A stretch of DNA of 55,777 nucleotides, counting the filler, from Circinaria calcarea (Eukaryota), in the NCBI GenBank assembly GCA_051942165.1. It is 5 parts of 5 records of this genome, joined end to end, with 100 filler letters (N's around TTAATTAATTAA, not from the genome) between each part and the next. Parts side by side here need not be neighbours in the genome. Positions count along the whole stretch, not along the records: positions 1 to 11,086 come from JAVECS010000714.1; 4 more parts are not named here. One strand, 5' to 3'. A program made the position numbers and the translations under genes. How positions within the stretch are numbered: the first letter of the stretch is position 1; each line of letters begins with the position of its first letter. The notes below the pieces were generated by a model. It was given only the letters and a program-made list of their open reading frames with translations, searched no databases and was not told the DNA's origin. Shown here piece after piece: positions 1 to 44,710 of this stretch.

Positions 1-1394
1 AGCCCAGGCACACTTAGGAAGAAACCCCCCTCCGCCCCCCATTGGAAAGAAAAAAAGAAAAAAGTTTGAAAATATTACACTATTATGGTTTTTCTGAAAC
101 TGGTATCTATCTCTTTGCTAATAAATCGTCAAAAATCTACAGCCATTACGACAGCCTATTCAAACCAGTGTAAGCATAAACATTCTCCCTCCCTTCATTC
201 CTTCTACCACCCTTTTCTATTACTTCCAGATTTTTTCGCTGACACGGTTCCCCCGCATGTAGTGTTGGCAGCATCATCGACCAACCCAACGGCTACGGGC
301 CCGTGAATGTGTACAATAAACTCGATAAAACAAAAGCGCTCACGAATGCGGATAGTTATATGTACTATGCTCTCGTAAGTGCCGTTCCTATATCCCCCAC
401 CCTTTGGCTCACCCAGCATGCACTTCGTTGCTTTTAGGCTAACATGGGTTTGTATTTTACAGGAGGTTTTGTGGACGGTTATTTGTTATGAAACTGATGG
501 CTTTGCTGCACCCCGCGCGGGCATTGATGATGCGGATCCGGATTGCGGGAAGCAGACTTGTAAGCCTTGATATATCTACTTAAGATTTCGGAAATTACCT
601 CTCTTTTTTGCCTTTTTAGATTATTTGGGGGTTATTTAGAGTTATTTAGGATTTGGGAATTAAATACTATTATAATAAAACGGAGGGCGGGTGATCTTTT
701 GGAGTATCACGTAATGAAGGCGTGCTCTCAAGTGCATAGTATATGTATTTAGTATAAGATGGATGGGATCTAGCCAGAATAGCTGCACAAAGCTAATACA
801 CATAGCCTGTAGGGCGGCGCGGGTCGACCAGCCTGCCGTCAGGGGTGGCCTGAGAAAGGAGGTGCATTTACAGGGAGGGCGTTGTTGTCTTCAAGGGGCT
901 CGACGGTCTATACCGCGATGTATGATAAAGGCTATTGTAATACGATATGACATTATGCGTGTAAAGAGTAAAAAGGCAGCAGAAGAAGAAGTGAAAACCG
1001 TGTGTGACGTGTGGAGAAGAATGCTCGGGGGATCGCTGAGATATGGAGCGAATAGTGCGCCCAATTAGCGTTGTTTCCCTGCCATTTTCTCCAAACGCTC
1101 CAATCATAACATCCGCTTGTTTATGACTAATTTGGCAACGTCTCACTTGCTGTTTTAGCACCTGATATAGGAACGATCTGGGGGCATTAACTAACAGCAT
1201 TCGAACCGCTTTAATGATTGCCTCCAAGCGTTGCTTGAGAATATATCTGATTCCTAGACATATACAGAGGCTGAACAACAAAAGCCAAGTTATATAGTAT
1301 AGGAGATGATATTAATTCCAAAACGGAACACACCAGAAGCAGTTTTAGACTCAGCAGAGCTTAAATAAATCCAAATAAGATCTCCCCTAAGCAG

Positions 1395-2998
1395 TCATAC
1401 AGCATCAAACCCTTTAACTACCGTGCCATTCCCATTTTGCGTCGGCTCTGAAAGATGACCATTCACGCGACCATCTGCCCGGCCTTCTCTCACTGCTGAC
1501 GTTGGCCTTTGATCTAAATGGACTAGCGGAATGTGAGAGGTCGTAGCCGCCGACCCTCGCTGCTCTAGATGTCCGAGCGAGCCATGGCGGGAATAATACC
1601 AATCCGAGGCCGTGCCATCATCACCAGTCTTTGTAAATCGCATTTCGGTATGATTTCTTCTTGGATCCGATCTCAACGATAGTCTCTCCGCAGCGTGGCG
1701 GATTCCAGCCAAAGATAGGTTCCAACCACGCCGGATTTGTTTGGGAAGAGCGTGGGCAGCACGGAAGCTTAGGCTGGGGAGGTTGCAAGCAATGAGACCG
1801 ACGCCAATCTCGACGGCTGGCCACGTTGAGAAGAGAAGGCCAGACCCTATATGCTGGTATCAGCTAGGGAACTAGCCGGAAAAGACTCACAATGAGGAGC
1901 AAAGGGGGTTTTGTCAGCGATGGCTCGCTTGTTAGCTGTTTGGCTCACGTACCTTGGAAAAAGTTTGCCTGGCCTCCAGTTTCTACAACCGTAGGTTTCG
2001 TCAAGTAGACCAGCTGGACAATTGTGTTGCTGAGGCCGGCAACAAAGGCGCTTTCAGATATTAGATCTAGTCATGAGAATAAAACGATGCAAATTCGTCA
2101 CTCACAATCCTCCGAGTAAGAAAATTGTTGCGATTATTAGTTTCCGCGAGAGACTTAATTGCAACCTCCAGACCTATATTGAATCCGCTTGGTCAGTTTT
2201 TGAAACCACATCAATGAATAACGGTAAAGATAGTCACTTACAAAGGGTATTGGCAAAACAAGTAGGAAGAAATCAATAAAAGTGTCCAAGCAAAAAACAC
2301 CCATCTGGATATCGAAACCCCATGGATCGCAAGCGCCCCAGCCACCTTCAAAGTTGGCATGGAGGTTTTTACCGCAATACAAGATCCAGGAGAAAAAGCC
2401 ATACACTATCCAGAGGAAGGAAAGGCCTATTAGAGTCCAGTTGCAGATATTAAAAATTCGACCGATGAAGATACGGCGGTAGAAGAAAAGAATAGAGAGT
2501 TTGATCAGAGCGTTGGAAGCAATCCAGAATATTACTAATGCGCCCGTCACCTAGAACCAAGCGGCATGTCAGTATCGGTTCGATAAGAAGTAGTCGAGCA
2601 AACGTCGAACTGGAATGAACCGAATTGTATTTACTTGCGCAAGAACACGTTGCTGCTCTGTGACAGAATTGGGATCTGTCACTGATTGCTCGACGAAAGC
2701 GTTCTTGAAGACTCCTTGGCGGCACGTTATTCTCGAAAAGCAAAAGTTCAAAACAGTAAGTTACCAGTCAGGAGTGAGGCACAACAGCCCGTTAGGGAAA
2801 GCTGACGAAGAGTTAATCCCGCATCTGCCTTTGTAGTTTCTTGAAACAAACCCATGCAGGCAGGCAAAGCCAATCATCAATTTGCCTCGAGGTCTTTTGG
2901 TGCCAGCGAATGTAAAATCGAAGCGCCACAAGAATTCCGCCGATGACAGGAAAGACAAATCCGATGGCAATAGCACTACTACGTGTTGCTATGCCCAT
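1395..2998 (-). CDS. PTH11-like / fungal rhodopsin-domain integral membrane protein (multi-exon)
   Basis: N-terminal TM followed by 'VALRFYIR...IDDWLCLPAW', then 'LIKLSILFFYRRIF' and 'IDFFLLVLPIP'; GT-AG introns link ORF fragments 2813-2998, 2155-2550 and 1395-1712. The 3' end is approximate. Confidence 0.8.
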
Positions 2999-4315
2999 CT
3001 TAGCGACCTATAAACTTTTCGAAATGAAGACTGGGAGAAAAACAGATGCTAGGTTCTCTAATATAATTGTGGCCAACTTGCGGCGCAGCTTTTTCATCAA
3101 ATGCTAGGGTGAACTACCTACACTACAGCATTCCTTCGCAAGAGTGATACAAGACGCACGCTGAACCTTCCCGTAGTGGTTACCCTGGGTGTGGAGCGCA
3201 AGGATCGCTCGAGTCAAGTAATTCACGCAGCAATGCAGGCAATTCCTAGGCTTACTTTACAGCGCAGTATCAGTGAAATCCGCCAGTAAGAGAATAAATA
3301 CTCAGGTTGGGGCAACCGGTAGAGTTGCACGAATCATGGATGACCACCCCCGGGAGCTGATAATGGCGATCTTGGTATGTTAGCGGCCTGGTAGCTTGGT
3401 CTCACAGCATTTTACCTCGGCGGTTCTAAGCTGAGAAAGATAAAGTATAAGATTGCTAATCGGAGCTACAACTCCTTCAAGACACCTTAGAAGATAGAGG
3501 CACGGGTTATGCATCGTCGCCAATCATAGAGGAAGTCATGATCGGCAAGGAGAGGGCAGAGTGGTGGCGGGAAGGAACATGCTCCTATCCGAGCGGTCCA
3601 CCTTAGGAAAGGCCGGTGAGGCATTTATGCGTGACTTGTGTGTCGGAAAATGGCTTGCTCGGCTAGGAGAAATATAGGGGCCCCCACTTCGCATCGGATA
3701 ACTGCGCTGCCAACGTTACGCTTTTCAAACGTCGTACCACTTCAAATGCTGATGTACGGAGTAAGATTGCATCATTTATCGGGTGATCTTCCACTATCCC
3801 GTGAATCTTAAGGTAATCTGATGTAATTCTGGGCAGACCCGTACTCCCGGCTGAAAGCTAGTAGGCCCATTGAGCCCGATAGTCGGGAACGCCAATCATC
3901 CACGTCTTGAAAAGGGTAACGGCCGGAGAATCGGTTATAAGGCAAAAAGCTTCGCCTCCCTCGTGCAGGATATCTATTCCCGCAGATTTCACTTATCGTA
4001 GATTCTAGCACCGGCCATTTAACTTGAATGACTGGGCTTCGAGGATCTCGAATAATAAAAACTGCGAAGGGATGCGACCCTTCGGATTGGCCGCATTTGG
4101 CCTAGTCTGCTGCTGTTTTCACTGTGTTTCGACTGTGTTTATTTGCCTCAGAAGACTTTACCCGTAATTGTTTGCATAAATATTCAGTGATTCTTTGGCT
4201 CACCGCTCAAAGAATAAATGATGAAGTGTTAAGCACACAGGAACGTCTCTCATCTTTCCACTATCGTGATTCTTCCCGGATAAGAAGCACTTGCCCTAAA
4301 ACCTTTCAAACGGCC

Positions 4316-5839
4316 ATGAAGTGCCTTTCAAACGACTCGAGTGTGGAGAATGTAAAAGAAGAGGCAATGGAGGGCCAGAGTACCGCGGGAGCTGTTGATT
4401 TTGTGTCAGAAGGCCGAAAAATTGACGAGCGAAGTATAGATCTTGAACTAAACGAGCGCAACGCACAAAAGCCACGGAGAAGATATTATATCTTCCCAGC
4501 TTTACCTTCCAACGACCCTGGACCTCCTCCAGACGGCGGATTTACTGCTTGGCTACAAGTGCTGGCCGGCCATCTTATGTGTTTTGTCACATGGGGTCTT
4601 ATCACGAGTTTCGGTGTCTTCCAATCGTATTATGAAGAAACACTCGGACTTGTACCATCTGCTGTCTCGTGGATCGGGACGATACAGATATTCTCCCTTC
4701 TCGTGATCGGTACATTCTCGGGCAGAGCAAGTGACGCGGGCCTTGTGCACGAGGCCGTCTTCGCGGGCACCTTTCTAATTGTCTTTGGCATTTTCATGAC
4801 AAGCTTATCAACTCAGTACTATCAGCTGTTTCTGTCCCAAGGCATGTGTGTAGGGTTGGGCATGGGCATCCTCTATATGCCCGGACTTTCGGTACCTGCA
4901 TCCTATTTCAAGGACAAGAAGTCTCTTGCAGTGGCTATCATTGCTTCTGGAGCCGGGTCGGGAGGCCTCGTCTATCCTGCTATGGGGCAGCAGTTGCTTC
5001 CGCGTATTGGTCCATTCTCCAACTGCCCCAAGCGTCAGAGCGAAGAATGATGCTAATTTGAAGCAGGATTCGGATGGACTCTTCGCTATATGGGGTTCGT
5101 CACGCTCGTCGTTGCTATTGCAATTAACTTGCTCCTCCGTATGCGTGTACCCCCGCGAAGATCAGGACCTATTGTCGACTGGAGAGCATTTACCGAGATA
5201 CCATACATATTTTTTGTCATTGGTTTCTTTCTTATCTATTGGGCAGTGTACTTTGCATTTTACTACGTAAGTACTTTTCAGACTCGACTTTGATATGGAT
5301 CGTGCCACTGACGTAGAGTAAAGATAGACAAGTACGGTCATACGTTTGCCGGTTTCACGTCTGTCGATTCAATCAATATTTTGCTCACCTCCAATGGTCT
5401 GGGTATACCAGGAAGAATTCTACCCGGATTCATCGCATCGCGATGGTGCGGCCCACTCAACACGGCGATCCCAACAGCGACCTTGGTCGCGATCATCTTA
5501 TACTGCTGGATTATCGTTGGAGACTCTCGCAGCGGGCTCTACGTTTTTGCTGCCATTTACGGTCTCGTCGCTTCTGCAATCCAATCTCTCTTTGCGGTCT
5601 CTCTCGCCGCGCTCACGGACGACCTCAGTAAGCTCGGTATCAGGATGGGGATGGTTTTCAGCGTGGTAGCTTTTGCAAGCCTGACTGGAAGCCCCATAGC
5701 CGGAGCACTGATCCAAGCGGACGGTGGGACATATCTTGCGGCGCAAATTTGGGGGGCAACAAGTATGCTTCTAGGTGCAGCGGCTTTGACTATTGCACGG
5801 GTTGGGCGAACGGGTTTGGTCCTGCGGGCTAAGACATAG
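4316..5839 (+). CDS. MFS transporter, monocarboxylate porter (MCT/Mch) family
   Basis: 'PPPDGGFTAWLQVLAGHL...TWGLITSFGVFQSYY' signature and many TM helices over three exons (introns near 5010-5066 and 5267-5322). Confidence 0.9.
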
Positions 5840-6208
5840 GAACGGGTCATGCCAGTGGATAGAGTGACAAGGACTTGGAAACAAATAATTTGAATCAAAG
5901 CATTTCTATTAGTAAAAGAGCCCGATATTCTGTGTCTCCATTCATATCTGTTTCCAAACTCGAAGGAAACACACATTCAACTCGCTTTGATAATTAATGG
6001 GAGAATGTCTTGGATTCAAGCTCTTGTTACTAGGCTATGGCCTCCGGCCCATCGCTCTTTCCCATCAAACCTCAATATACCGTTGTTTTTCCACCATACT
6101 CAGCTTGACTGTAGTAGCTATTAGCTATCGCATAGGAACAGAAGTCGATTACGCTGGTGCCTCGGTGCTCACCTACCTAATTGATGCATGAGGTTTTCTT
6201 GAATAGAC

Positions 6209-6479
6209 CTAGTTCTCAGCATACGAGCTGGCCGCTTTCTCTCCCACTTGAAGCATCGGATCCGTTTCGAAATGGGCTCTCTTGCTACTGTAACCAGCAA
6301 ACGACGATGCCTCCTTCTCCCCAAGTTGCAACATCGGCTTGGTTTCAGAGTCTGGTAACATTGATCAGTTGGGACTGCTGGTATGGGGATCAAGAATCGT
6401 GCTAACTGGCAGGGTGAACCACTGGAGCCGCTGCTGCGCAGGCAGCTAGAAGGGTAACGAGAAACGTAGCGGTGAGCAT
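6209..6479 (-). CDS. Kex2-processed repeat protein (KEP), putative dikaritin RiPP precursor, 71 aa
   Basis: Manual translation: exon 1 6479-6407, intron 6406-6352 (GTTAGC...ACTGAT...CAG), exon 2 6351-6209. Product MLTATFLVTLLAACAAAAPVVHPANSETKPMLQLGEKEASSFAGYSSKRAHFETDPMLQVGEKAASSYAEN*: signal peptide and two imperfect repeats separated by KR. Divergent from a DUF3328 gene. Confidence 0.82.
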
Positions 6480-6585
6480 TTCGACTATGTGAGTACTTGG
6501 AATAGATGATCAATGCAAGAAGATTATGGAGTTGATAGATAAGTGAAGCTTTTCAATTCTTAATTATTTCCGTTCTCAATCACTT

Positions 6586-6592
6586 CTTTATA
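6586..6592 (-). promoter_or_regulatory. Putative TATA box of the KEP precursor gene
   Basis: TATAAAG on the minus strand about 110 nt upstream of the ATG at 6479. Confidence 0.35.
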
Positions 6593-7459
6593 TCGTCTTT
6601 CCCTTTGTGCAAGGCTGAGAGAAGAGGACAATGTGTAGCTGTTCCATCTTTCCCCAAGATATTTCTTCTGGCTCTAAGAGGCCCAAACACGGTAGACTAT
6701 TGGACCAATGTTGCAATAGTATCTAGTGAAGCACTATGACATAAGGACCTAAATGCAAAGGCACCTTTCCAACATGCGAGTTATTTGTCATGCGTTTCTC
6801 GCTTGCGAGGTGGGAGTGCATATCATACCTCCGGCCTATCAGTAAGTAGGACTCTGCCACAGAGCGCAGATCCGTTGGAACACTGAAAATTGCGTGATTT
6901 ATCAAGACTGTATCAGGACTAATCTGCGGATGCTCTACCTTATTGAATACGTCATTCGGTACCAGGTCTGAGAACCTTTTGCTCGATAGAATCTCCTTTT
7001 ATGCCGATCACAGTCCCCGAAGGGATGGGCTGGCTGCCCTTGTACCATTATCCCGGAGTCCGCATTATCAATGTAGAACCGCTGCTTTGTATGTGGTTCG
7101 TGCAATGCAAATTACGTCAATCATAACAATTATATGCGCTTGTTCGTACTGGTTAACCCGCCCAGTCAATATTTAGTAAAGTACCTTTCTAATCGTTTCT
7201 CGGGTTGATATCTTGGATCGACGGGAAGAGTTTGTAACTACTTCAATATCCGTGGCTAAACCAAATAAAAAAAATGGTATTCTTTCTCCGTATGCTCTAT
7301 ACCTGATTGCACCTTGCCTTATCAACTATTTAATCAAAACGTTTTTGAATTAATATTGTACTTCGGTTATATTAAGCACCGCTGGCTACTCTTTATTCTG
7401 TTTTCCAACTTTTGGCTGCTGACTTTCTCGCTTTATTGCAATAGGCAAACTTTTGTGCT

Positions 7460-8474
7460 ATGGTGTCTAACGCAGCTAATTATACTCCGCTACCAAATAA
7501 GAAGGGTTCTGAACAAGAGTACACAGCGGGCGATGAGTCAGAAATTCCATTGATTAACGAGGGTGGTATGTTTTCCGATGAGAAGCGCAGGAATTTAAAA
7601 CGGTACTGGTTCTGGATTGCCTATTTCGGGAGTGTAATAGCTATGTCAGCATTGCTTGTTGAAGTACAGCAAAGTATTCGGAACAACCGACGCGAATGTT
7701 GGGACATGTTTAATTACTATTGTAAGCGCGTCATCGGATTGTTGCTACAGAATATTGAACTGAAAAAGGCTGATATTTACACGCCCGGGCGTGTTTCAAT
7801 AGCTCCTGTTAATAGCGCAGTTACTCCAAACCCTCATGTCCACCGACAATTCAACGGCTCGTTATGGTATCAAAGCCCCTTCAAGGGACCACCAACCCCA
7901 GATGTGGAAAAAGCTTGGTACGATATTATGAAATGTAAGTAAATGGATGTCTGTTCCTTAAAAACCCTTCGATTTCGTTACAGAGATAATTCTTCGCTAA
8001 CTTCACGATGATGGTACAGATGGCCTCATTAGCGTATCCAAGGAGGATATAAACAAAGTGAAACACCCTGACTGGTCGGCGCAGTTCCCACCCGAAGCCG
8101 GCGGCGGCTACATCGCTGCGACGATCGGCTCGCATCAGCTGCACTGCTTGCACTATATCTGGCAGGATCATCATATCGATTACTTTGTGAAAATGCAGGA
8201 CAAAAAGCGACGTGTGCCGGAGCTTTATGAGAGACACTATGAGCACTGCGTGGATTATATTCGGCAGAGCCTTATGTGCCAATTTGATACTGGGATCATC
8301 CCCTATAACTGGGTTCTGGATCACCAAAATCCGACGCCGAATGCAAATACGCATCACAAATGTGTGGACTGGGACGCGCTGCAAGCCTGGCTAGGAAATA
8401 GGACGGTGGAGGTGCCGGAGGGCTTCAAATGGTATCAACCCAAAAATGCCGTGGCCATAGGATATAATCCGTAG
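7460..8474 (+). CDS. UstYa-like / DUF3328 oxidase
   Basis: N-terminal TM anchor, 'SPFKGPPTPDVEKAW', and twin HxxHC motifs 'HQLHCLHYIW' and 'HYEHCVDYIRQSLMC', then 'HKCVDWDAL'. Introns 7722-7802 and 7935-8019. Confidence 0.93.
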
Positions 8475-8818
8475 ACACGTTGAAAATCGAGTTGGCTGAA
8501 CAACGGGACACGCGATAAACTTTTTCAAGCTTTTACACACGGATTTGTACGGAGAATATTTATACAAGAATTGAGGGAAATTTCCTGCTACCCGTTTTTC
8601 TCCCATCGCATTTTTAGATATTTGAAAAAGCGCCAGACTAAGTGTTTCCGTATAGCTTTTATCAGAACTCGGGTTATAAGCAGAGTTAAACCATATTAGG
8701 CTGGCTACATTTTTATGTTGTACTTGAGATTTAATTTCGGAAACACAGTAGAAAACATTTAAGTTAATACTCAGCAAGCTGCGAATAAAGAAAGATGGTA
8801 ATATAATCTCCTGTGAGC

Positions 8819-10300
8819 TTAATGTTTTTTGATCGCAAATCTTCGAATTACTTCATCCTCGGCGAAAAACCTTGTAACTTCCTCCTGTTCATTGATTATA
8901 AATTCGCAGCTTCCGTCTGGCAGCCGCGGCAGCACCACCGGCATTCCGGGGATAAGCCCTCGGGAAGGCAGCCGAAATGCCTCAATCTTCCCTCCCAATG
9001 CCTTCCCAAAGTCGATCTCGTGCATCTCAAACCCGAAATAGCTGACAAGTAGTATACTTCCGATAGACAAGTCCTCTAACACCGACGGTCGAGTGAGTAT
9101 TTCCATGTCCGTCCTCTCGACGAAGGCTAGCAAATCTCGGAACTTGTCCGCCGTGGCGCCATTTACCTCCGCGCGTATCGCGCGCGCTGCGGCCTGGAGC
9201 CCTAAAATCTGCGAGGCGTCGAAGCTATCGGTGGCGGGTACGAGGTGTGGGAAAGCGAGGGAAGCCTTGACCCCGTAGATGGCATTGCCGAAGTATGGCT
9301 CGGGGAGATGGAGACGTGTGCGGCAGTCGATGGCCTGGCTGAAATGAGTGATTATGTGGCCGGAAAGGACGCCGGCACGATGGCGCGCGAACATTATGCT
9401 GCGCCAGATCAGTGCAGCGATGGCGTCATGCGTCGATATGCTGGTAGCTTGATCGGGATACTGGATTCGCTGACCATCTGGCGGATGTGAAATGTTAATG
9501 GCGGCGGAGGCGGACGACGAGGGCGATAATGATGATGCGACCTGTTTTAGGGTACGAAGCGAGTCGCTGCTGATGTGGAAATGTGTGCAGAGAGTCTTCG
9601 TACTAGCGGAGCCGCCATGGAACTTGAGGGGCGATGCAGTCCAGCCTGGATGGTTTTCAATGGTACCGGGAAAGCCGTTCCCCGAAAGCAAGAAGGTGCG
9701 GTCGAATGAATAGGATTGCCTTGGCTTTTTTTCAGGACCGGTGGAGAGGCTCGTGAGCTCACCTATTTGGGCTTTGCGGAGCTTGTCCGCGAACAGTTTC
9801 AGGATATCTGAAATACCACGTCCATCGCAGACTGTGTGGATGATGGAGACAACCAAGAGAAGACCACCTCTGACGAAATTAGCCCGCATGCGGCACACAT
9901 CGATCGGGCCATCTCGGATATAGATAGGTTCGGGGAAGGGGCAGAGCTGTTCTGTGTCCAATAATAATGGGGAGAAGTGAGCTTTACGTAAATTCAGGAA
10001 ATCTATGTCCTGAGAAAGATCTTTAACCTCAAGATATGCAGCACCTTGGGGACGGAGATCGTGTAGCCATGGTTGGTCCTTGGAGAAAAGCACAATGGAA
10101 CCTGCCAGAAAAGGGAGCTCTTCCACTGTAGAATGTAAAGCCGCAAAAAGCAAGTGAACGATATTCTCGTTGTACTCGTTGTTAGTATTCGGCAAGGGAA
10201 AACACAAGACTCTTTTCGAGTACAGGGGCGTCATTCGTTTATCCCAATGGGATAGCTGGAGAGTGAAAGGAGGACAATGAACTGCGAAAACCTTCTCCAT
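8819..10300 (-). CDS. CoA-dependent O-acyltransferase (transferase family, Tri101/BAHD-like)
   Basis: 493-aa intronless ORF with HxxxD motif 'HTVCDG', 'YFGNA' and 'DFGKALG'. Confidence 0.88.
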   Translation of the reverse strand: MEKVFAVHCPPFTLQLSHWDKRMTPLYSKRVLCFPLPNTNNEYNENIVHLLFAALHSTVEELPFLAGSIVLFSKDQPWLHDLRPQGAAYLEVKDLSQDIDFLNLRKAHFSPLLLDTEQLCPFPEPIYIRDGPIDVCRMRANFVRGGLLLVVSIIHTVCDGRGISDILKLFADKLRKAQIGELTSLSTGPEKKPRQSYSFDRTFLLSGNGFPGTIENHPGWTASPLKFHGGSASTKTLCTHFHISSDSLRTLKQVASSLSPSSSASAAINISHPPDGQRIQYPDQATSISTHDAIAALIWRSIMFARHRAGVLSGHIITHFSQAIDCRTRLHLPEPYFGNAIYGVKASLAFPHLVPATDSFDASQILGLQAAARAIRAEVNGATADKFRDLLAFVERTDMEILTRPSVLEDLSIGSILLVSYFGFEMHEIDFGKALGGKIEAFRLPSRGLIPGMPVVLPRLPDGSCEFIINEQEEVTRFFAEDEVIRRFAIKKH

Positions 10301-11086
10301 TATCTAAGCTCGGATCTCGATAGAGCTTTGTTGAGCTTCAAAAATGTAGCGATTTTAAGGCCGAGATGTATAGATAAAGCCCAGCCAAAGCGTTCGAAAT
10401 TCGATAATAAGTATTTATAAAAAGCCGCCAACTCGATACGGTTAAGCTTTGTCGCTCAAAACAAGCGTAGAATAGGGCCCACGATGAAAAGGGAGTTATT
10501 ACATGAATGCCATTATATAGAGGCGAGGAGATTACCCAGTTCCTTTGAATTCATAGTCATAGATAAAGGAATAATGCTTAATTTAGTTAATATAATAATA
10601 TTAACGGTATATACGACATAGAGAGCTACGGACGGGAAATGAATGAAGGCCGAAATCATTATATACCTCTTTTAAGTCATATACTCCCGGGAAGGGTTAT
10701 CTTGTCATTTCATAGGCAATACTCTAGACACTGACGGAGTCTAGAAATACTGAGGTCCCAACCTCCACCCGCGGTATAGTCAGCTGTTCATGCTTCTTGT
10801 TGGACTAACTCGCCAGCCTGTCTCCCTGTGTTCATAAAGCATCGACCCCATCCTCTACCCCATGAAGGCCTCATATGCTCATCCTTCCCCAAATTAGGGC
10901 AAATCCTCTCCATAAGTCCGTGCCATCTCCCACTGCCTAATTTTTATCTCTCCTCTTCGCCTACCCCTTCACCCCTTCCTTCTCACCTCCCTCCGCTACC
11001 CAATCATCCCAACTTCCGCCATACTCACCCACCTTTTCCCACCCCGCCATCCTCGCCATCCCGGCCGCAGCCCTGCTCCTAACTCC

Positions 11087-11186
11087 NNNNNNNNNNNNNN
11101 NNNNNNNNNNNNNNNNNNNNNNNNNNNNNNTTAATTAATTAANNNNNNNNNNNNNNNNNNNNNNNNNNNNNNNNNNNNNNNNNNNN
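11087..11186. other. Artificial contig spacer (N44-TTAATTAATTAA-N44)
   Basis: Six-frame stop linker inside an N run; identical to the other three spacers. Confidence 0.97.
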
Positions 11187-12149: not shown

Positions 12150-13229
12150 CTACTCGACTTTGGCCCAAGACGGTGATTCGAGCTGCGGCTGGAGGCCGAC
12201 CATTCTCGCCCGGGCCCACTGATCGAGCTTGTCCCAGTTGGTACATACCCGCTCACTGTTGGTCTTAACGATGGGTTTCCGGTGTTTCTGGAAGTAAGAC
12301 TTTGGTTGCCATTGGTAAGTATACAAAGCAGGATTTGCCGCGCACATTAGCGAGTTGCGAATGGCTTCAATACAGTGATCTAAATGGATGGTCGACGCCT
12401 TAGTTTGAGCAAAAGGAACCAAGGAGGGGCCAACCGGGGAGATTTGGGTCGCTTACCAAGGTGAGATATCTCGTACGCCGTCTCCGAGCCATTCAGGTTG
12501 GGGTAGTAACGGTCCTTGTGAAGGTATAGCTTGATGCGACGCTTGAGAAATGGGTCAGTGATGTTGGCGGAAGGAGCTTAAAGGATGATTTACCAGGCAG
12601 TGCAGTTCATGCCCTACTCCGAGAGAGCCCATGTATCCGCCTCCTTCGAGGCGTACCGAATTATCGGGATCCTCGCCACCCAACGCCATCTCATCATAAG
12701 AGACTCGGATGAGTGCAGCTGCGCCTGATATCAATACGGTACTAAGACTCTGCCAAAGAACTCATACGCGTTACTAAATTAAGCCAGGCATTATCTTGGT
12801 CGTCCGATGGTGGACCTGCAAAAACCTCCGGATTTTCGGTAGCGTGCTTCTTCTGGGTCTGAAATTGGAGGGCGCTCCTTGCTGGCGCTTTGGGTTTGTC
12901 AGCCCTGAAACAGCTGGGCAGGTTCGTCCTCAAGCCAACCAAAGGAGTTTATACATACTGTATGGAAAGAAGGTCTGGTATAATTGGTGATTTCCCCGAG
13001 TAGTCGTCACAACTATGAAAAAGAGGGATCCGGCAACATAAAAGGCCAGAATCAACGTGACAACAGAGTAGCAGAAACGACGGAGGGACCTATTAGAGCG
13101 GGTCTGTGGCCCTCTTGCACTGTCGAAGTAAAGGTCATCAACAGAATCCAACGAAGAATCCCGTTCTGACACGAGGCCAGTTTTTGGAAGACCATTGTCA
13201 AGTATTGCAGTATACTTGTGGTCGTCCAT
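12150..13229 (-). CDS. Second UstYa-like / DUF3328 oxidase (multi-exon)
   Basis: Start 'MDDHKYTAIL', TM anchor, 'FAGPPSDDQDNAW', 'GVGHELHCL' (near 12595-12620), 'HLDHCIEAIRNSLMC', 'CTNWDKLDQWA'. Confidence 0.92.
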
Positions 13230-13853
13230 ATCGGACAAGGTGATACACTGGGGAGAAAAGGCTGTACGAGATGCTTTAAGATAAGAATTGATGTGTTCGA
13301 GTGCAAAGGAACAATGCACAAGAGGTTAGGGTTCAAGAGGAAAATCAGAAAGGCGATGGTGTTGGAGTATGGAATGAAAATAACGGAGGTATTGAAACGC
13401 TTAAGTTTCCAAACATACCTTACCATGGGTCGACGTCAATGTGCCATTTACTGCTAAGCCTCCTCGTATATGTGCGGACAACTGAATTGTGGGGCTCTCG
13501 CCGGGGCTTCTTCCGGATTGGATAGCTGGTGCATCTCAGCTCCTTTTGTGCAGCGTGATATTGGTATTGGCACGGCACCTCGACATCATGCATGGCAAGC
13601 CTCTCGGGGTAGATTGGGCCCCTTGTGCAAGGATAAGCCCAGTATCATAGGTTGAGCAGAAACGGTCCACAAGGGCTTCGATCCAGCTCTGCTACGCCGG
13701 AAAACAGCGGGAAGACCCAGAAGTGTATTTAGATGGGAGTCGTGCCCATGGGAAAGGTGCCAGATTCCCACCATCTAGTCTCAAGCTCCAACTCATATCC
13801 TCAGCTGTCTTTCCATCAATCTTTGCGCCTTCACAAACTTCGAAACCAGCAGA

Positions 13854-15121: not shown

Positions 15122-17152
15122 CTATCCTCTGATATCAACCTCCACTACTGGTCCCTTGTAGATTTTGCGAGCGTACAAGAAATAGTAGGGGACTGCGAAA
15201 AGGATCACTGCGCCGACCATGAGCGAGCTATAATTCATCGTCGCAGCAGTCGGGTTGGTCGCTGTAGGGAAGAAGCTGAAGATCAATACCACAATCATAT
15301 ATGCACAGCCGAAGATGTTGTTGATCGTCCCAAAAGGCTCAGGGATCCGGAAAGCTCCCCACCTCAGATCACCGTCCATTGTATTTGTCAATGTATCCTG
15401 TGTCAAGGAGGATGGTTTAATGTCTCCCGTAAGTCGGCGGTACAGCAGAAGGCTATTGCCGATCAGGTAGGACGTATACAGGCCGTTGATTGAGAGCGAT
15501 ACCACGTCATTGAATGCTACCGAGGATCCGAGACTGATGAGACTGAGGAGAACAGCAATGATAGCTGTCACACCGATTGAGACGAGAGGAAGCGTACTTC
15601 GAGGCTCAACCTAAGCCCATGGTTATTGAGCAGTCACCATCCGTAGGAGAAGTAGACGACATCAGAATTCCAGCTGACGTGCTGGGCTTACCTTGCTTAA
15701 ATATTTCCAACCCGGAGTTCCTCGGTCACGTGCGAACGACCAGGTCATCCTCGACGCTGTAGCAACGAAGCTAATAGTGGCACAGATATTCAGGATAGTG
15801 ATAAGCGCAGCCATGGTCGACGCCCCCCCTAAAGAGCCTACAGCTTGTTGGAATATCGCCATGAAGGGATATCCAGTCGGCGTGGAAAGGACTGCATCGA
15901 CATCGCCTAAACAGAATAAGGCGGCAACAAGCATCCCAAACCCCAGGCCACCATTGATAAGGATGCTAAAGATTATTGCGCGTGGGACATTCACCGAGGC
16001 ATTCGTAATTTCCTCGGACATCTACACGGTCAGTAAGCATGATGAAGGCCTGCCGCCGGCACAAAAGGGCTTGCCAAATGTTAGAAAAACCTACGTGGAC
16101 TGCACCGTCGGCACCTTGAGTGTACGTTAGTGTTGCCCTTAGACTAAACTTCAATAGCCGCGGGTAACTCACCAAGAAGGCTAAATACCGGTCCCACTAT
16201 TCCAACCATAAATGAGACTCCTTGAGTTTGCCAACCACCTCCATTGTAAAAAAGTGTGAAAACATCGGAAGCTCTCCCATGGGGAGCATAGTAAACCAGC
16301 GGAACCAGAATAGCGAAGAATCCCAGTGTATGTAGAACCAGAATAACGCCTTCGATCTTTGGGAAAAGGGGACTCATGATCGTGTTTACCAGGATTGCAA
16401 CCGTAATTGCGGCCCAATATAGCAAGACGAGTTGCCATGGTTGCGGGCTGTAACTGCCGTTGTTCAAGTTAATCAATCCTTGTATAAGCGTTGCACAAAG
16501 GAAGCCCCCAGAAGCAACAATCGCCTGCCAGCCCACCATTGTCAGCCAGCCTACAGTAGTTAGAGAATAGTTCATATCGGGCAGCGGAGGGGTGAATCGA
16601 CCTATTAGGTAGCTAAGGAATTTACGACTTGAACGAGGGGCCAACATAGAAACCCAGTGATATTGTCCTCCAGCGGTGGGAGCCCTTGATGAAAATGTTA
16701 CCATGTATTATCCAAGCTAGTAGGATGCAGGACGACCTACATGGACGCCAACTCTGCCATTGTCGAAAAGGATGAGGCTGTGCCCAACCACACCAGTAAG
16801 AACCCATAAACCGAACCGGCAAAGCCGCCGTTGGTGAAATTGATGGTGAAAAGGCTATGCCTATACTGAGAGCTGCATCAAAGGTTCAATTTATAGCCAG
16901 CTCACAGTAACACGCCCTCCCATGTTATCATCACTGTACAGCTAAACCCCAGCATCGACAAGAAGCCGAAACTTCGCTGTATTTCATCAGTAGGGGAACA
17001 ACGCACGTGACGCTTTGACGAACCTTTAGTATCGGCTTCTTCCCCAACCGCGTAAGTTCCAAGTCATCACGGTCTTTGCGAGAGCGTTCAGAAGGCAGCT
17101 CCGTGTAGGCTACCGTTTCGTCAAGAGATTTGAGTGCTACAGCTTCTGCCAT
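15122..17152 (-). CDS. APC-superfamily amino acid/choline/GABA permease (multi-exon)
   Basis: 'LTRLGKKPILK', 'APTAGGQYHWVSMLAP', 'GADGAVHMSEEITNAS', 'SRMTWSFARDRG', 'MNYSSLMVG'. Confidence 0.92.
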
Positions 17153-22265: not shown

Positions 22266-22365
22266 NNNNNNNNNNNNNNNNNNNNNNNNNNNNNNNNNNN
22301 NNNNNNNNNTTAATTAATTAANNNNNNNNNNNNNNNNNNNNNNNNNNNNNNNNNNNNNNNNNNNN
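22266..22365. other. Artificial contig spacer
   Basis: N44-TTAATTAATTAA-N44. Confidence 0.97.
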
Positions 22366-23298: not shown

Positions 23299-26200
23299 TC
23301 ACTCGCCATCACTCTCCGCCTCCGCAACATCATCATGGAACGTCTTCCCCTCCGTCGTAGCCTTGATCATCCCGATCCGAATCGTAAAATCCCCGAACCT
23401 CTCCCCGTCCTTCCGCTCCAAGGCATACCGCTTGAGTAACGGCTTCATAATGTCCAGAATCTCCTCTTCTTGGATGCTGCTGCGGTACAGCTTGTTCAAG
23501 CGTTGACCGTGATAGCCGCCGCCGAGGTACATGTTGTAAGCACCGTAGGCTTTGCCTACAAACGCCACTTCCGCCAACCAAGGGCGAGCGCAGCCGTTCG
23601 GACATCCGGTCATGCGCATGATGATGCTGTCTTGGCGGAGCCCGTTTTCTTCCAGGCAGGATTCGAGCTTAGTGATGAGCTCTGGTAGGTAGCGCTCCGA
23701 CTCGGCCATTGCGAGACCGCATGTCGGAAAAGCGACACAAGCCGAAGAGCTTAACCTTAGGCCCGAGAACTGCAAGTTGTCGAGCTTGTACTCCTTCATC
23801 ATGCCTTTGATCATGTCAAGATCGTCGTCATGAACCCCCGATAGGCAAAGATGTTGATTCCCAGTCAGGCGAAATTCACCCTTATGTACCTTGGCGATCT
23901 CACGTAACCCGGTCTTCATGGGGAAATCCGTGGTATCCTCGACACGGCCATTCTCGATGAAGAAGGTGAAGTGATTGGTGCCAAACTCGTCTCTCTGCCA
24001 ACCAAATGTGTCGATATTAGACTTGAACTCAAACGGACGAGGCTTCTCAAACTTGAACTCCAGCAAGTCCTCTACTTTATCACGGAAGACATCAACACCC
24101 ATGTCGTCGATTGTATACTTTAGACGAGCATGCTTGCGGTTCTTACGATCACCATGATCTCGCTGTACAAGCATTATCTTCTCGCACACAATATGGACCA
24201 CGTTGGCAGGAACGTAGCCCATCATGCTTCCCGTACGCGGGTAGGTCTTCTTATTATTATGAGTCACACCCATTCCGCCACCAACAAGGACGTTGAAGCC
24301 CTCAAGGCGGTCATTAGAGTTCTTGATGGCAATAAGACCAACATCGTGCGCGTAGACATCTGTATCGTTATGAGGAGGAATGGCGATAGTAATCTTGAAC
24401 TTCCGAGGAAGATAGGTCGGGCCATACAACGGTTCATGATCCACTATGGCGTCGCCAGCGACCTTGGTCTTGCTGTCGTCGTCATCCTTGAGCCAAATTT
24501 CGTGGTACGCGGTGGTAGCTGGTAGGAGATGGTCGCTAATTTTGGCGGATACTCGATGGACGTCTCGATGGTATGCAGACTTGGTTGGCAGTGTACTTAC
24601 CATGACGTTACGATTGACGTCGCCACAAGCAGCGATTGTGGTCATCAGGGCCTTGTTGATAGCACGCATGGCTGGCTTTAGCTTGCCCTTCACGACACCA
24701 TGGAATTGGAAAGTTTGACGCGTGGTCAATTTCATTGTCTCATTACCAAACGAACTGCTGATAGAGTCCATCTGGAGCCACTGGGATGGCGTGGCAACAC
24801 CACCATTCAGCCTGCATCGAATCATAAACGCGTACGCTGGCTCTAATCCTTGAGCCTTCCTTTCGTCACGTAGATCCCGATCGTCTTGCATATAAGTACC
24901 GTGGAACTTGGTCAGCTGTTGATCCGAGGCGGCAATAGCTCCAGTCGAAGTGTCCTTCATACCCTCTGCGATGGTGCCGCGAAGGAAGTTGGACGCAATT
25001 TTGATATCTTCGTTGGTGATTGGTGGCGGCTCCTCTGGTAAACCCTCTACCTTATCGACCCCGAGTGCTTGCCACAACTTGGGCTCCCATTCGCTATAGC
25101 CAGTCTGGTACCCGTCTGGATCTTGATCATCACCAAGGCCAACATCAGTCAGGCGCTGGGCTCCAAGAAGCGCTATCCTTGCATCAAGGTCTTTCCCGGG
25201 CTTGTTGTAGTAGATCTTGTCTTCTTTCCTCGGCCAGTAATGACTATCTCCAAGAGCAAAAACGGCAAATCGTACATTGGAAAGGTCTAGGTCGGCTGTG
25301 ACTTTGACCGCATCCCAGAAAGCTCGACCATTCTGGGGAAATTCTCCCTGACCAGCGGTGGCCGTAATCAAAACGACGTTCTCTTCTCCAGAAAGATCCT
25401 CCAGCGGAAAATCGTCCATGGCCATAACCATCGTCTTCAACCCTCTGGCTTTCCCTCGATTGCCAAGGCGTTTTGCCAGACCTTCGGCATTACCGTTGTC
25501 AGACGCATAGAGAATTGTCATTGGTGCTCCGTATAAACCGTCTAACATCTTGTCATAAGCATCTTTAGCGGTTCTCTTTTGCAAGGCGCGAACTTCGCTG
25601 CCATATGAGTCGGATAGATTGGCGGAAAATTCTGGATGTCTTCGCATCAACTGGGAGAGATGGTTGTCTCGCCTCAAGAACTCCTCGAGCTCCCTTTTGA
25701 TTCGTTCCGAGTCGAGCGAGAAATTTGGCATTCCATTCTCTTCGTGGTTTGGATTCCATCGGTACAACGGCCAATAGCCGGTATCCACCGCCTTTTTCGT
25801 CTCTTGCAAAACTGTCAATGCGGAATCGTCCTCTCGGTTATATGGTAGGTAGGCCACCACAACTGAAGGGCCGTCAAATTGATCAGCCTCAATCATCGCC
25901 TCGAGGACCTGAGTATACGAGCTGTACACGGCAACGGAAGCGACATAGGCGTTTCCAAAGTTCATAGCATACAAGCCAACATCCTTCTTCCTCCTCACTG
26001 CATCCGCAGCAGCTCGTTCCGAGTATGGCTGAGAATCAATTACGAGCATGTTAACATTTGCGCCTGATGCAACGACATGGTGGACACCGGAATTGCCCAG
26101 ATCATAAGCCCATGCATCGGATCCAATGAGCCATTGAGATTCTTTGAAAAAAAGAGACTTCGATGATAACAAGTGCGCTGCCAGTTGAGAGCCGTCAGTC

Positions 26201-28029
26201 TCCAAACGAGCTATAACTTCCGAAGCTATATTATTCGCCTTCTTGGGATCGTCCGCGTTCATGGCCCACCTCGCAAGCCAAATTTGTGGGACATCTGTTG
26301 TAAAATCTCTAGTTTTGATAGCGTCTTGTACTTCGCGAATAAACCTCTTTCTGTGATCACTTCTTGCAATAAGGGAGCCGAAACCATATTCGGGGCTCGC
26401 AGCAATGGATGAGGAGATACCTGCATCCGAAGCGTCCAGCCGATTCGCGATGTACAATCGTTCGCCGAAGAGCTGGTCGAGAACTTTCATATATGCTGTC
26501 TCCACCTTCGGCTGCTCCAAACTGTATGGTGGTGAAGAATTTGGAGGACCTCTGGTACTCCCAATCTCAAGATTTTGAATGGGTGAAGTCGACAGGAGAT
26601 TCTGGCATATACCACGGAGTGCTTGTCGAGCAGTCGCAGGCTCGATGTAGCCTAGCTGATGGCCGACAATGAGCGGGGGATCAATTACATTTGGACCGCT
26701 CCTCAGACTCATCAAGATGTCGAGTAAGACTGGTCCCCATTTCGTTGTCTTCCTTCGAATCTGCTCCAGAACAGCAATTCTTCGGACAGTTGGAGGTAGC
26801 GAATCGATGAGATCCTGGGCCAACCAAGGTCGATACAAACGTGCCGTCATGATCCCTATCCTCGCAAACTCATCGCTCGCCTTGGCTTCTCGTATTTCGT
26901 CTATAAACAAGCCTGTAGATCCAAAGATGAAAAGTGCAGATTCTGCTTCATCCGGTCCAGAATACTCAAAGGGATGATATCTTCGTCCAGTAACTGAAGC
27001 GAACTTTGTCCATATCTCATCTAAGAAAACTTGTATGTCTTCAGATGTTACGGGCCGGATGACAACGGAATCTATCGAAGTTGCGGAAGATAGCGAGGGC
27101 CTACTATCTGCACTACTTTCTCCAGCTGCTGAACCAATAGAGGATCCTTCGCGACTCGTTACTTTTGATAGTGCCTGCACTGCGGACTGCACCACCTGTG
27201 GCTGGCTTTCCGACCCACTGAGAGTTGGTAGACGGTTTTCCGTGACTGTTGCATGGTGGCCATCATCAACATATATCGACCGGGCATCGGTGTGCACGGA
27301 CTGAAGCCCCCTTACAACATCGATATTCAGAAGCCCTTTGACCAGTTCTCGATCTTCATATTGGATTGGTCTGTCGTTTGCCGAGTTTGTGATGTCGAAG
27401 AAGTGTATAACACCCTTCCCAGACTTTACGGCAAGGGCATGTGCGGATATTGCAATGTCTTGTGCCTCCTGCAGCGTTTCCGACTGCAGAAAGGTAAAGC
27501 CGGATTGGCGTATAGCCGTGATCTCGGAATAGTCGGGATGGCTCAATGGATGTAGAGATACATGAATAACGATAGGATACTGGGCAAGCTTGTAAAGATG
27601 TGAGACGGATGCAAGTAGCGTTGATGAGGGTGTAGTAATCGAGACGGATTGGCCAGACCGTAGTGGTTGGAAGGCCGAAAGGAATGGATCAATGTTGTGT
27701 CGTATCGACTGAACCTGTGGATATATCAACGGACTGCAGTTCTCTCTATCTTCCACCTGGAACATACCTCCGGCACTGCTCTCGCTACCAGTCCCTGTGA
27801 TTTCCTTGCGGCGAAACTATGTAGATATTTTGAAAATTCCGAGTCTCTGCTCAATGCCGGCTGGACGGATATGACCACATCGCTGGACAAGTATGCAATC
27901 CTTGCCACTGTGGAAAGCAATCAGTAATTAGCAAACCGATCAGAAGCCCCGCCATTCTCCCAAGACGCGGGGAGCAGCTATAGAATCAATTCCATCCATA
28001 CCTGCTTCGCCGACGGTGGAGATCGACAT
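23299..28029 (-). CDS. MET5: Sulfite reductase (NADPH) beta subunit
   Basis: PFOR-like N-terminus, flavodoxin domain ('ILYASDNGNAEGLA', 'TAGQGEFP'), siroheme/4Fe-4S domain ('KFHGTYMQDDRD', 'ACVAFPTCGLAMAESE', 'MTGCPNGC'). First exon MSISTVGEA inferred at 28029, with two 5' introns. Confidence 0.96.
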
Positions 28030-28571
28030 TCTGTGTGAGGGTCAATTGCAACAGAGGGCGGAGGAAAGGAGGGTGGAGTTTGTGGTGAGGAGGTGGAGTG
28101 TTCTGGCACAACTGAAGTTTGAGGAACATTTTTTCCTCCTCCATCAATCACGCACGATGGCGAAAGTCTTATGTAATACACTCTAGCCATTTTTTCTCTT
28201 GACTGTCACAATCCACCGTTGCTTAGGGATGCTTCCATTGGTCGAATATTGCGCAAGAACTGCTAGGCCTGGCGTAGAAAAATAGAGATCCGGGCTTAAG
28301 GTTATCGGCAATCTGACCGCCCGGGTTTAGTCTAACTAGAACTATCGTGGGCTACTTGAAGGAACAGCTGCGGGCGTACTCTTGGATCTGGATATATGTT
28401 CTTCTTCATATGCTCCAATGCGTGCTCACTCTCGAAGGATTAACTTACACGAGGCTCAGAGGATTATTAAATACACCACTCTAGGGTAAATGCATCTGTC
28501 TAATACGAATCTACGTCGTCCTCTGATTGCCGAACTTGTCTTCGTAATTCTCGCATCTCCGATTATCTGCC

Positions 28572-33439: not shown

Positions 33440-33539
33440 NNNNNNNNNNNNNNNNNNNNNNNNNNNNNNNNNNNNNNNNNNNNTTAATTAATTAANNNNN
33501 NNNNNNNNNNNNNNNNNNNNNNNNNNNNNNNNNNNNNNN
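33440..33539. other. Artificial contig spacer
   Basis: N44-TTAATTAATTAA-N44. Confidence 0.97.
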
Positions 33540-44610: not shown

Positions 44611-44710
44611 NNNNNNNNNNNNNNNNNNNNNNNNNNNNNNNNNNNNNNNNNNNNTTAATTAATTAANNNNNNNNNNNNNNNNNNNNNNNNNNNNNNNNNN
44701 NNNNNNNNNN
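44611..44710. other. Artificial contig spacer
   Basis: N44-TTAATTAATTAA-N44. Confidence 0.97.

Follow-up and report, generated by a model that had tools for sequence, protein, structure and literature searches.

The window analysed here, a 55,777-nt stretch of DNA from Circinaria calcarea (GCA_051942165.1), carries a small gene at positions 6209–6479 next to a gene of the UstYa (DUF3328) family, referred to as UstYaA. Probably, the small gene is real and its two exons encode a secreted precursor of Kex2-processed repeat protein (KEP) type, which belongs to a widely conserved family and is modified via UstYaA by the route proposed below. The window consists of five joined pieces of ~11.07–11.09 kb, and only positions 1–11086 are physically linked to the precursor gene, which is composed as follows.

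6407–6479, minus strand: precursor exon 1, 73 nt, comprising 24 codons and the first base of the junction codon, with the ATG at 6479–6477
6352–6406, minus strand: precursor intron, 55 nt, phase 1, with donor GTTAGC, branch-like CTGAT and acceptor CAG
6209–6351, minus strand: precursor exon 2, with a TAG stop at 6211–6209 and a repeat-profile match of E 4.8e-23
6284–6349, minus strand: repeat 1 (degenerate), i-E-value 1e-07 against the repeat profile
6278–6283, minus strand: dibasic K-R, a Kex2-type site separating the repeats, from the exon-2 translation
6212–6277, minus strand: repeat 2 (canonical, A-H-F-E-T-D-P-M-L .. S-S-Y-A-E-N), C-terminal, i-E-value 2.8e-13

Translation of exon 1 gives a hydrophobic, signal-peptide-like N-terminus of 24 amino acids that ends in H-P-A and has a maximal 9-residue Kyte-Doolittle mean of 2.64, by which measure it ranks as an endoplasmic reticulum (ER) signal peptide. 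Exon 2, translated from 6349 to 6212, yields 46 amino acids made up of two repeats with K-R between them, and the repeats are identical at 13 of 19 positions when counted on this translation. An original prediction, made from the sequence of the window alone, had claimed a signal peptide followed by two aligned 19-residue repeats split by KR, and the translated product matches this description. Full-length homologues are colinear with the spliced model, showing the same hydrophobic N-terminus followed by ..P-A, one residue (N, H or Y) and the first repeat. Without splicing, the frame of the ATG at 6479 reaches a stop after 25 codons, and the alternative unspliced start at 6361 gives a 50-residue product with no signal peptide. 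Some homologue entries in the databases are this unspliced 50-residue call and others begin within the repeat, which shows how gene callers lose the first exon.

The precursor gene was compared with those of four metagenome loci (L001–L004) confirmed among 21 pattern matches, of which L001–L003 represent one taxon and L004 another. The intron is 62 nt long in L001–L003 and 69 nt in L004, with its position, phase, GT, CTGAT and CAG, together with the ATG, all retained. The lengths of 55, 62 and 69 nt differ by non-multiples of three, yet the flanking exon frames are preserved. Given that splice signals, frames and colinear homologues are kept, the signals in two taxa other than that of the window, the two-exon gene is taken on this sequence evidence to be real, and the splice model originally put forward, removal of 6406–6352, whose coordinates were reproduced exactly on rereading, is very likely. 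In addition, a repeat profile built from the homologues matched the precursor locus only (E 4.8e-23; runner-up E 2.7) among 2538 six-frame fragments of the window, and a match so specific to one locus is not due to chance.

A protein search with the exon-2 peptide returned 13 homologous proteins (E 3e-22 to 5e-9) from Hypoxylon, Xylaria, Annulohypoxylon, a Xylariaceae species, the lichen fungus Letrouitia and other assemblies. A profile search of 1.84 billion representatives gave 62 proteins at E ≤ 0.001, including 33 at E ≤ 1e-10, with named matches from Cytospora mali, Annulohypoxylon, Biscogniauxia, Xylaria, Setomelanomma, Kalmusia, Elaphomyces, Acarospora and Lobaria and nine Metarhizium entries. 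The family thus spreads over Xylariales, Diaporthales, Hypocreales, Pleosporales, Eurotiomycetes and lichen fungi, and its named members are all annotated as hypothetical proteins. Among the 35 members having at least 15 amino acids ahead of the first repeat, 28 show a signal-like hydrophobic core in a crude hydropathy test, and the start codons of the other seven look mis-called.

A family logo was drawn from 182 repeat units taken from 75 proteins, with denominators that vary by position. The repeat reads F-E-[TA]-D-x-[ML]-L-x-[VI]-[GA]-x(4-6)-S-S-Y-A, with P, S or A at position five and KR or RR usually following. Conservation is high at both of its ends, F being present in 128/128, D in 138/150 and L in 171/177 units, and the closing S-S-Y-A in 162/169, 165/167, 159/162 and 150/150, respectively. 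Most proteins hold two copies (45/75), and others three (18), four (6), five (2) or one (4). A [KR]R site is found at 74 of the 89 internal repeat junctions, in 72 of these located 0–6 residues past Y-A, while the remaining 15 junctions are mainly single-R linkers. Since the dibasic site stands immediately after Y-A in six junctions, and four terminal repeats end at Y-A, a tetrapeptide core of the ustiloxin-like Y-A-x-x form is not conserved. Since both repeat ends are invariant, the unit may combine a recognition element with a core, or it may be a scaffold in which both ends are used. Taken together, the precursor family appears from its alignments to be real, conserved and uncharacterised, and of the UstYa-type kind of peptide made by the ribosome and modified after translation (RiPP).

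The two repeats of the window differ in how well they conform to this logo. Repeat 1 is altered at three near-invariant positions, with F replaced by S, D by K and Y by F, and is the sole unit among 162 family repeats with F at the Tyr position; on this comparison it looks decayed. The original prediction had stressed an aromatic residue, F or Y, at one shared position of both repeats. The alignment of that position was upheld, whereas the F proved to be an outlier at what is otherwise an invariant Tyr. The same prediction had proposed SSFAGY and SSYAEN as candidate cores, which the family does not bear out, the conserved unit being the whole 18-residue repeat ending in S-S-Y-A. With repeat 1 degenerate and only repeat 2 canonical, SSFAGY would be an unlikely core, and because the C-terminal repeat is the only canonical one, the gene of the window probably yields one functional unit per molecule. 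The highly repeated core listed among the features of such precursors (PMC7329392) is not seen here, where there are two copies, one of them degenerate, in a family with a mode of two and a range of one to five.

The loss of three near-invariant residues from repeat 1, and the failure to find the product of the window itself in the protein collection, would also suit a gene that is decaying or silent in this genome, a productless relic in which one repeat has degenerated. Such a relic is highly improbable, given that the start, stop, reading frame and splice signals are all intact and that repeat 2 is fully canonical and, judged by its codons, under purifying selection. Pairwise comparison of the 22 codons of the last repeat among the three taxa gave 6, 10 and 10 synonymous differences vs 3, 2 and 2 non-synonymous ones. 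The L004 precursor (9772–10140, plus strand) likewise has a degenerate first repeat, with G-E-K changed to S-E-V and Y to H, followed by two intact ones, and it follows that a decayed first copy beside intact ones is tolerated in the family.

The gene that adjoins the precursor is the second element of the proposed pair.

7568–8474, plus strand: UstYaA (DUF3328), 273 aa, Pfam UstYa E 5e-32
7568–7934 and 8020–8474 (including the stop), plus strand: UstYaA exons, separated by an 85-nt intron at 7935–8019 (GTAAGT..CTAAC..CAG)
6480–7567, no strand assigned: shared divergent promoter region of the precursor and UstYaA, from a three-taxon alignment

UstYaA scored 112 bits against PF11807, for a cut-off of 25, the matching ORF piece being that of its second exon (8001–8471), and a further in-frame ATG lies upstream of its start at 7460. 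Its product has an N-terminal hydrophobic helix and the motif pair HQLHC .. HYEHC, and both HxxHC motifs are invariant in 36/36 aligned sequences of the UstYaA clade. Orthologues are 272–275 aa long and 77–86% identical. The UstYaA start is located ~1 kb from that of the precursor on the opposite strand, which places a DUF3328 gene in the vicinity of the repeat gene. Within the intergenic region, two blocks at ~6824–6881 and ~7048–7084 are conserved in the window, L001 and L004 while the rest has diverged; these blocks are candidate shared regulatory elements. Database entries of the UstYaA clade are of two kinds, 149-aa calls covering exon 2 only, on long contigs, and full-length proteins of 273–279 aa on contigs of 1.1–1.7 kb. 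The short contigs could be assembled transcripts, in which case the clade would be expressed and spliced somewhere. A search of PDB by sequence with the UstYa profile gave 0 matches, and the ESM Atlas gave no usable match. Complex prediction with the UstYaA exon-2 domain and the exon-2 peptide, in which alignments were not used, returned a score of 0.00 and a mark of 0.34.

The original prediction had made its case depend on homologues being linked to DUF3328 genes, and this linkage was found: members of one UstYa clade adjoin the precursor homologues in 6 Xylariales genomes, at least 7 Metarhizium species and the 4 metagenome loci. In L001–L004 the arrangement of the precursor and UstYaA is the same as in the window. 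In the named genomes, adjacency was judged from consecutive accessions or locus tags. For the Xylariales these are Biscogniauxia mediterranea in two strains (KAI1494332/31 and KAI1631587/88), Annulohypoxylon stygium (KAI1441839/38), A. nitens (KAI0899424/25), A. sp. FPYF3050 (ABKA04_010202/03) and Xylaria cf. heliscus (KAI0478031/32). For Metarhizium they are M. robertsii (MAA_09017/16), M. anisopliae (H634G_06313/14), M. majus (MAJ_07495/96), M. humberi (MHUMG1_08376/75), M. brunneum (VB005_09428/29), M. acridum (J3459_015750/51) and M. guizhouense (KID84824/23). Five further pairings were made through contigs of equal size, in Xylaria curta, Annulohypoxylon bovei and three other contigs.

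Three further genes of the linked piece were identified around this pair.

4106–5839, plus strand: major facilitator superfamily (MFS) transporter gene of several exons, boundaries approximate, Pfam MFS_1, tail to tail with the precursor
1398–3071, minus strand: gene for a seven-helix membrane protein (PF20684, fungal rhodopsin-like), boundaries approximate, Pfam match ~2158–2550, at the outer end of the conserved block
8819–10300, minus strand: TRI101-like (BAHD-type) acyltransferase identified by Pfam, single exon, 493 aa (471 aa from the ATG at 10234)

The gene order of seven-helix protein, MFS transporter, precursor, UstYaA and transferase forms a ~9-kb block that is syntenic between the window (1398–10324), L001 (6139–14418) and L004 (5939–15157), and outside it nothing matches in the three comparisons. 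Beyond the block, L001 carries genes for Exo5, an SH3 protein, a kinase and a muniscin and L004 one for DUF7025, so that the flanks are unrelated. The MFS gene is 72–90% identical to the syntenic genes of L001–L004 and provides the transporter listed for dikaritin clusters. The acyltransferase matches Transferase PF02458 (8e-22, 77.9 bits) and TRI-like_N PF22664 (5e-17, 62.5 bits) over the ORF piece 8822–10303. An HxxxD motif and a DFGWG motif define BAHD enzymes, and the corresponding segments here read H-T-V-C-D-G and D-F-G-K-A-L-G. Its nearest solved structure is trichothecene 3-O-acetyltransferase (TRI101; E 9e-12), and its nearest named stand-alone relatives are from lichen-forming fungi.

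The transferase and a protein of the UstYaA clade occur on contigs of the same size in three cases (289,626; 19,851; 43,511). The transferase was considered as a family-wide partner of the precursor and rejected, its homologues in distant genomes lying on other contigs or being fused to enoyl-CoA hydratase. Because the transferase homologues are on other contigs outside the lineage of the window, the stable module is, as judged by gene content, the precursor together with UstYa, and comparison of the loci shows the acyltransferase, MFS and seven-helix genes as belonging to the cluster only in that lineage. Many of the transferase homologues with 42–47% identity, from Aspergillus, Trichoderma, Xylariales and others, are fusions of ~750–840 aa that carry the enoyl-CoA hydratase domains PF00378 and PF16113. 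This hints that the transferase subfamily uses a hydratase-derived acyl-CoA donor.

Pfam scans covered 117 ORF pieces of window positions 1–24000, 72 of the 91 pieces beyond, and 93 of the 117 pieces of L001 and L004. The scanned ORF pieces of the window contained no non-ribosomal peptide synthetase (NRPS) or polyketide synthase (PKS) domain, nor did the 20 kb surrounding the gene in L001 and in L004. This result bears on the idea that the small gene is a bystander and that UstYaA, with the acyltransferase, tailors a small molecule, non-ribosomal or other, produced elsewhere in the genome, as DUF3328 proteins do in the cyclochlorotine pathway. Several UstYaA homologues are named 'Cyclochlorotine biosynthesis protein O' in databases, by similarity, and NRPS products are also among the DUF3328 substrates given in PMC12435403. 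The fusion of transferase homologues to enoyl-CoA hydratase domains likewise points to small-molecule acyl-CoA chemistry. Since the 11-kb piece and the 20 kb surrounding the L001 and L004 genes showed no NRPS or PKS domain, and since the precursor and UstYa stay paired in three orders in which the remaining genes vary, tailoring of such a molecule is nonetheless improbable.

Proteins of the DUF3328 family are described as anchored in the membrane, their catalytic domain facing the lumen of secretory organelles, and as binding two coppers via HxxHC(x)nHxxHC while requiring O2 and electrons (PMC12435403). Their reactions at C(sp3)-H bonds include hydroxylation, halogenation and cyclisation, the asperipin cyclase AprY among them (PMC12435403). 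On this basis the signal peptide would deliver the precursor to the ER, where the invariant S-S-Y-A end of the repeat, or a position close to it, may be oxidised by UstYaA at a C-H bond, most likely, by analogy with other DUF3328 enzymes, to give a Tyr-centred cross-link or a hydroxylation. Cleavage of Kex2 type at K-R would then free the repeat units. In the lineage of the window, as the conserved 9-kb block would suggest, the TRI101-like enzyme may acylate a hydroxyl group in an acyl-CoA-dependent manner and the MFS transporter may export the product. Beyond the gene model, we infer every one of these steps.

A bolder and unlikely form of the proposal is that the whole unit of ~18 residues is the mature scaffold, with the UstYa clade tying S-S-Y-A to the N-terminal F-E-x-D..L part or making two modifications, and with TRI101-like acylation in the lineage of the window. 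If true, this would constitute a large-ring or acylated class of fungal RiPP unlike the 13-membered rings of dikaritins. In that event the near-invariance of the unit from Xylariales to lichen fungi, together with the seven-helix protein, would fit a conserved signalling peptide with a cognate receptor rather than a toxin.

Conservation of the 18-residue unit across fungal classes is also what is expected of a ligand recognised along its length, and the precursor might instead be an ordinary Kex2-processed secreted peptide (signalling, pheromone-like or effector) that is released unmodified, with UstYa sharing its promoter or regulation and acting on something else. The presence of the seven-helix membrane protein gene (PF20684) within the conserved block, and the figure of 22% of KEP genes that are accompanied by DUF3328 genes (Umemura 2020, PMC7329392), both suit a peptide of this kind. 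One specific UstYa clade nevertheless adjoins the precursor across Xylariales, Metarhizium and the lineage of the window, which is hard to explain without a functional tie, and the block contains no alternative substrate gene (NRPS or PKS). The invariant residue of the repeat is moreover Tyr, the residue type on which the characterised DUF3328 cyclases of ustiloxin, phomopsin and asperipin-2a act. An unmodified peptide is therefore given only a minor share of the probability.

Several observations weigh against modification of the precursor by UstYaA as proposed. Consecutive accessions and locus tags, rather than coordinates, were the basis for adjacency in the named genomes, and the count of pairings leaves out Cytospora mali (VM1G_09582), Setomelanomma, Kalmusia (N0V90_009187), Elaphomyces (V8E54_006350), Acarospora (MMC16_003379), Lobaria and Letrouitia (LQ351_005482), from which no UstYa was listed. 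The flanks of the block within the window itself are short, at 1.4 kb and 0.76 kb, the piece ending at 11086. In the ORF pieces scanned, the conserved block is without a tyrosinase, methyltransferase or peptidase. In Viridothelium virens, Xylaria bambusicola, Ustulina deusta and Nemania serpens, UstYa is on another contig than the best transferase homologue, and in the three Xylariales the transferase homologues are enoyl-CoA hydratase fusions only 42–47% identical. There are two repeats only, the first of them degenerate, unlike the highly repeated precursors of characterised dikaritins, and conservation extends to the entire 18-residue unit rather than to a short core, a pattern that would also suit a peptide that a receptor recognises over its whole length.

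When set beside known systems, the precursor shows both features by which KEP genes are defined, an ER signal peptide and repeats with Kex2 sites between them, and has a DUF3328 gene in its vicinity (Umemura 2020, PMC7329392). It resembles the ustiloxin system (UstA, UstYa/UstYb) in its signal peptide, its K-R-delimited repeats, Tyr-Ala near the repeat end and the adjoining UstYa/DUF3328 gene (PMC7329392). It differs in having two copies instead of a highly repeated array, a conserved unit of 18 aa, and, in the family, a Y-A often directly before K-R or the stop, so that no YAIG-like tetrapeptide is conserved. The linked piece also has only one DUF3328 gene and, in the ORF pieces scanned, no tyrosinase or methyltransferase. 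The five-gene dikaritin definition of Ding et al., as quoted in PMC12048977, includes a tyrosinase, a methyltransferase, multiple DUF3328 genes and a transporter or peptidase. By comparison, no Pfam match to a tyrosinase or methyltransferase was obtained in the 117 ORF pieces of window positions 1–24000 or in the 93 of 117 pieces of L001 and L004, and DUF3328 genes number one on the linked 11,086-nt piece and one each in L001 and L004. As for the Tyr-derived, ether-bridged macrocycles that make up the dikaritin products, the invariant Tyr of the repeat (159/162) is the only hint of such chemistry.

As far as gene content goes, the architecture is closest to the minimal asperipin-2a cluster (AprA, AprY, AprR, AprT), in which the precursor is accompanied by a single DUF3328 enzyme, one more tailoring enzyme and a transporter (PMC12048977), the same minimal set as found here. 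AprY is described as a copper- and O2-dependent cyclase (PMC12435403). The differences are that a TRI101-like acyltransferase takes the place of the reductase, that the family repeat is unrelated to the FYYTGY core, and that the conserved block includes a gene for a seven-helix membrane protein.

The lichen 'Clan R2' UstY clusters described by Pasinato and Singh 2025 (PMC12048977) have one ustY homologue and GNAT acetyltransferases, with the precursor not identified and no transporter. The present locus shares with them a single ustY homologue, acyl- or acetyl-transferase genes and the lack of the classical dikaritin accessory genes, and the precursor family is itself found in the lichen-forming Letrouitia, Acarospora and Lobaria. 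Compared by description, the acetyltransferases there are of the GNAT family while the enzyme here is BAHD/TRI101-like, and only the present locus has a transporter. Identity of the locus with a Clan R2 cluster was set aside on account of the different acetyltransferase family.

The suggestion that this may be a new peptide family has held up so far. From Table S2 of the 1,461-genome KEP survey (PMC7329392), 12 of 12 family accessions looked for are absent, though that survey included the genomes of M. robertsii, M. majus, M. brunneum and Valsa mali. The motif strings are likewise not in the Umemura 2020 supplements, where the table lists accessions, not sequences. In literature searches over ~8.4 million papers and preprints, which reached neither subscription-only papers nor bioRxiv supplements, neither PMLQVGEK, FETDPMLQ, DPMLQVG and SSYA in combination with Kex2 nor the locus tags MAA_09016, MAA_09017, VM1G_09582 and MAC_06565 were found, and topic searches of the same reach yielded no description of the precursor family. 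The 16 literature matches to the string 'assyae' were discarded as unrelated. What appears to be new, from the alignments, is a family of UstYa-type RiPP precursors whose repeat is unusually long, unusually well conserved and low in copy number.

Fungal genomes commonly contain UstYa/DUF3328 clusters, and the precursor genes of these are often unfound. One reason is illustrated here by a gene of 71 codons, split by an intron and with two repeats, that was missed both by ORF tracks and by the largest KEP survey. Constantly paired with one UstYa clade in three orders or more, the precursor provides a concrete and unusually well-conserved candidate enzyme-substrate pair for working out the function of that DUF3328 clade, rather than a new principle. 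Metarhizium and Xylariales offer tractable hosts for the pair, and the case supplies a pattern by which the hidden precursors of other UstYa clusters can be looked for.

The pieces of the window are separated by four artificial spacers (11087–11186, 22266–22365, 33440–33539 and 44611–44710), each consisting of 44 N, TTAATTAATTAA and 44 N, and because the window is concatenated, gene neighbourhood across the spacers is not physical. The transferase of the window is on record on a contig of 11,086 nt, which equals piece 1 in length. The concatenation affects a further gene of the same family on piece 2.

~12150–13330, minus strand: second UstYa/DUF3328 gene, multi-exon and intact-looking, UstYa fragment match 12153–12452

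The second DUF3328 gene has HELHC and HLDHC motifs and is ~23–33% identical to the UstYaA clade. It has no counterpart in the syntenic loci L001–L004, and the repeat profile detected no precursor of the family beside it among the six-frame fragments of the window. Lying beyond an artificial spacer, it was rejected as a cluster member. The original prediction had spoken of DUF3328 genes near the precursor; UstYaA (7568–8474) is indeed linked, while the plural is not established, the second gene being on another joined piece. The other pieces carry unrelated housekeeping genes, among them a sulfite reductase-like ORF of 1505 aa (23302–27816, minus strand), a hexokinase (28548–30374, plus strand) and an amino-acid permease (15125–16707, minus strand).

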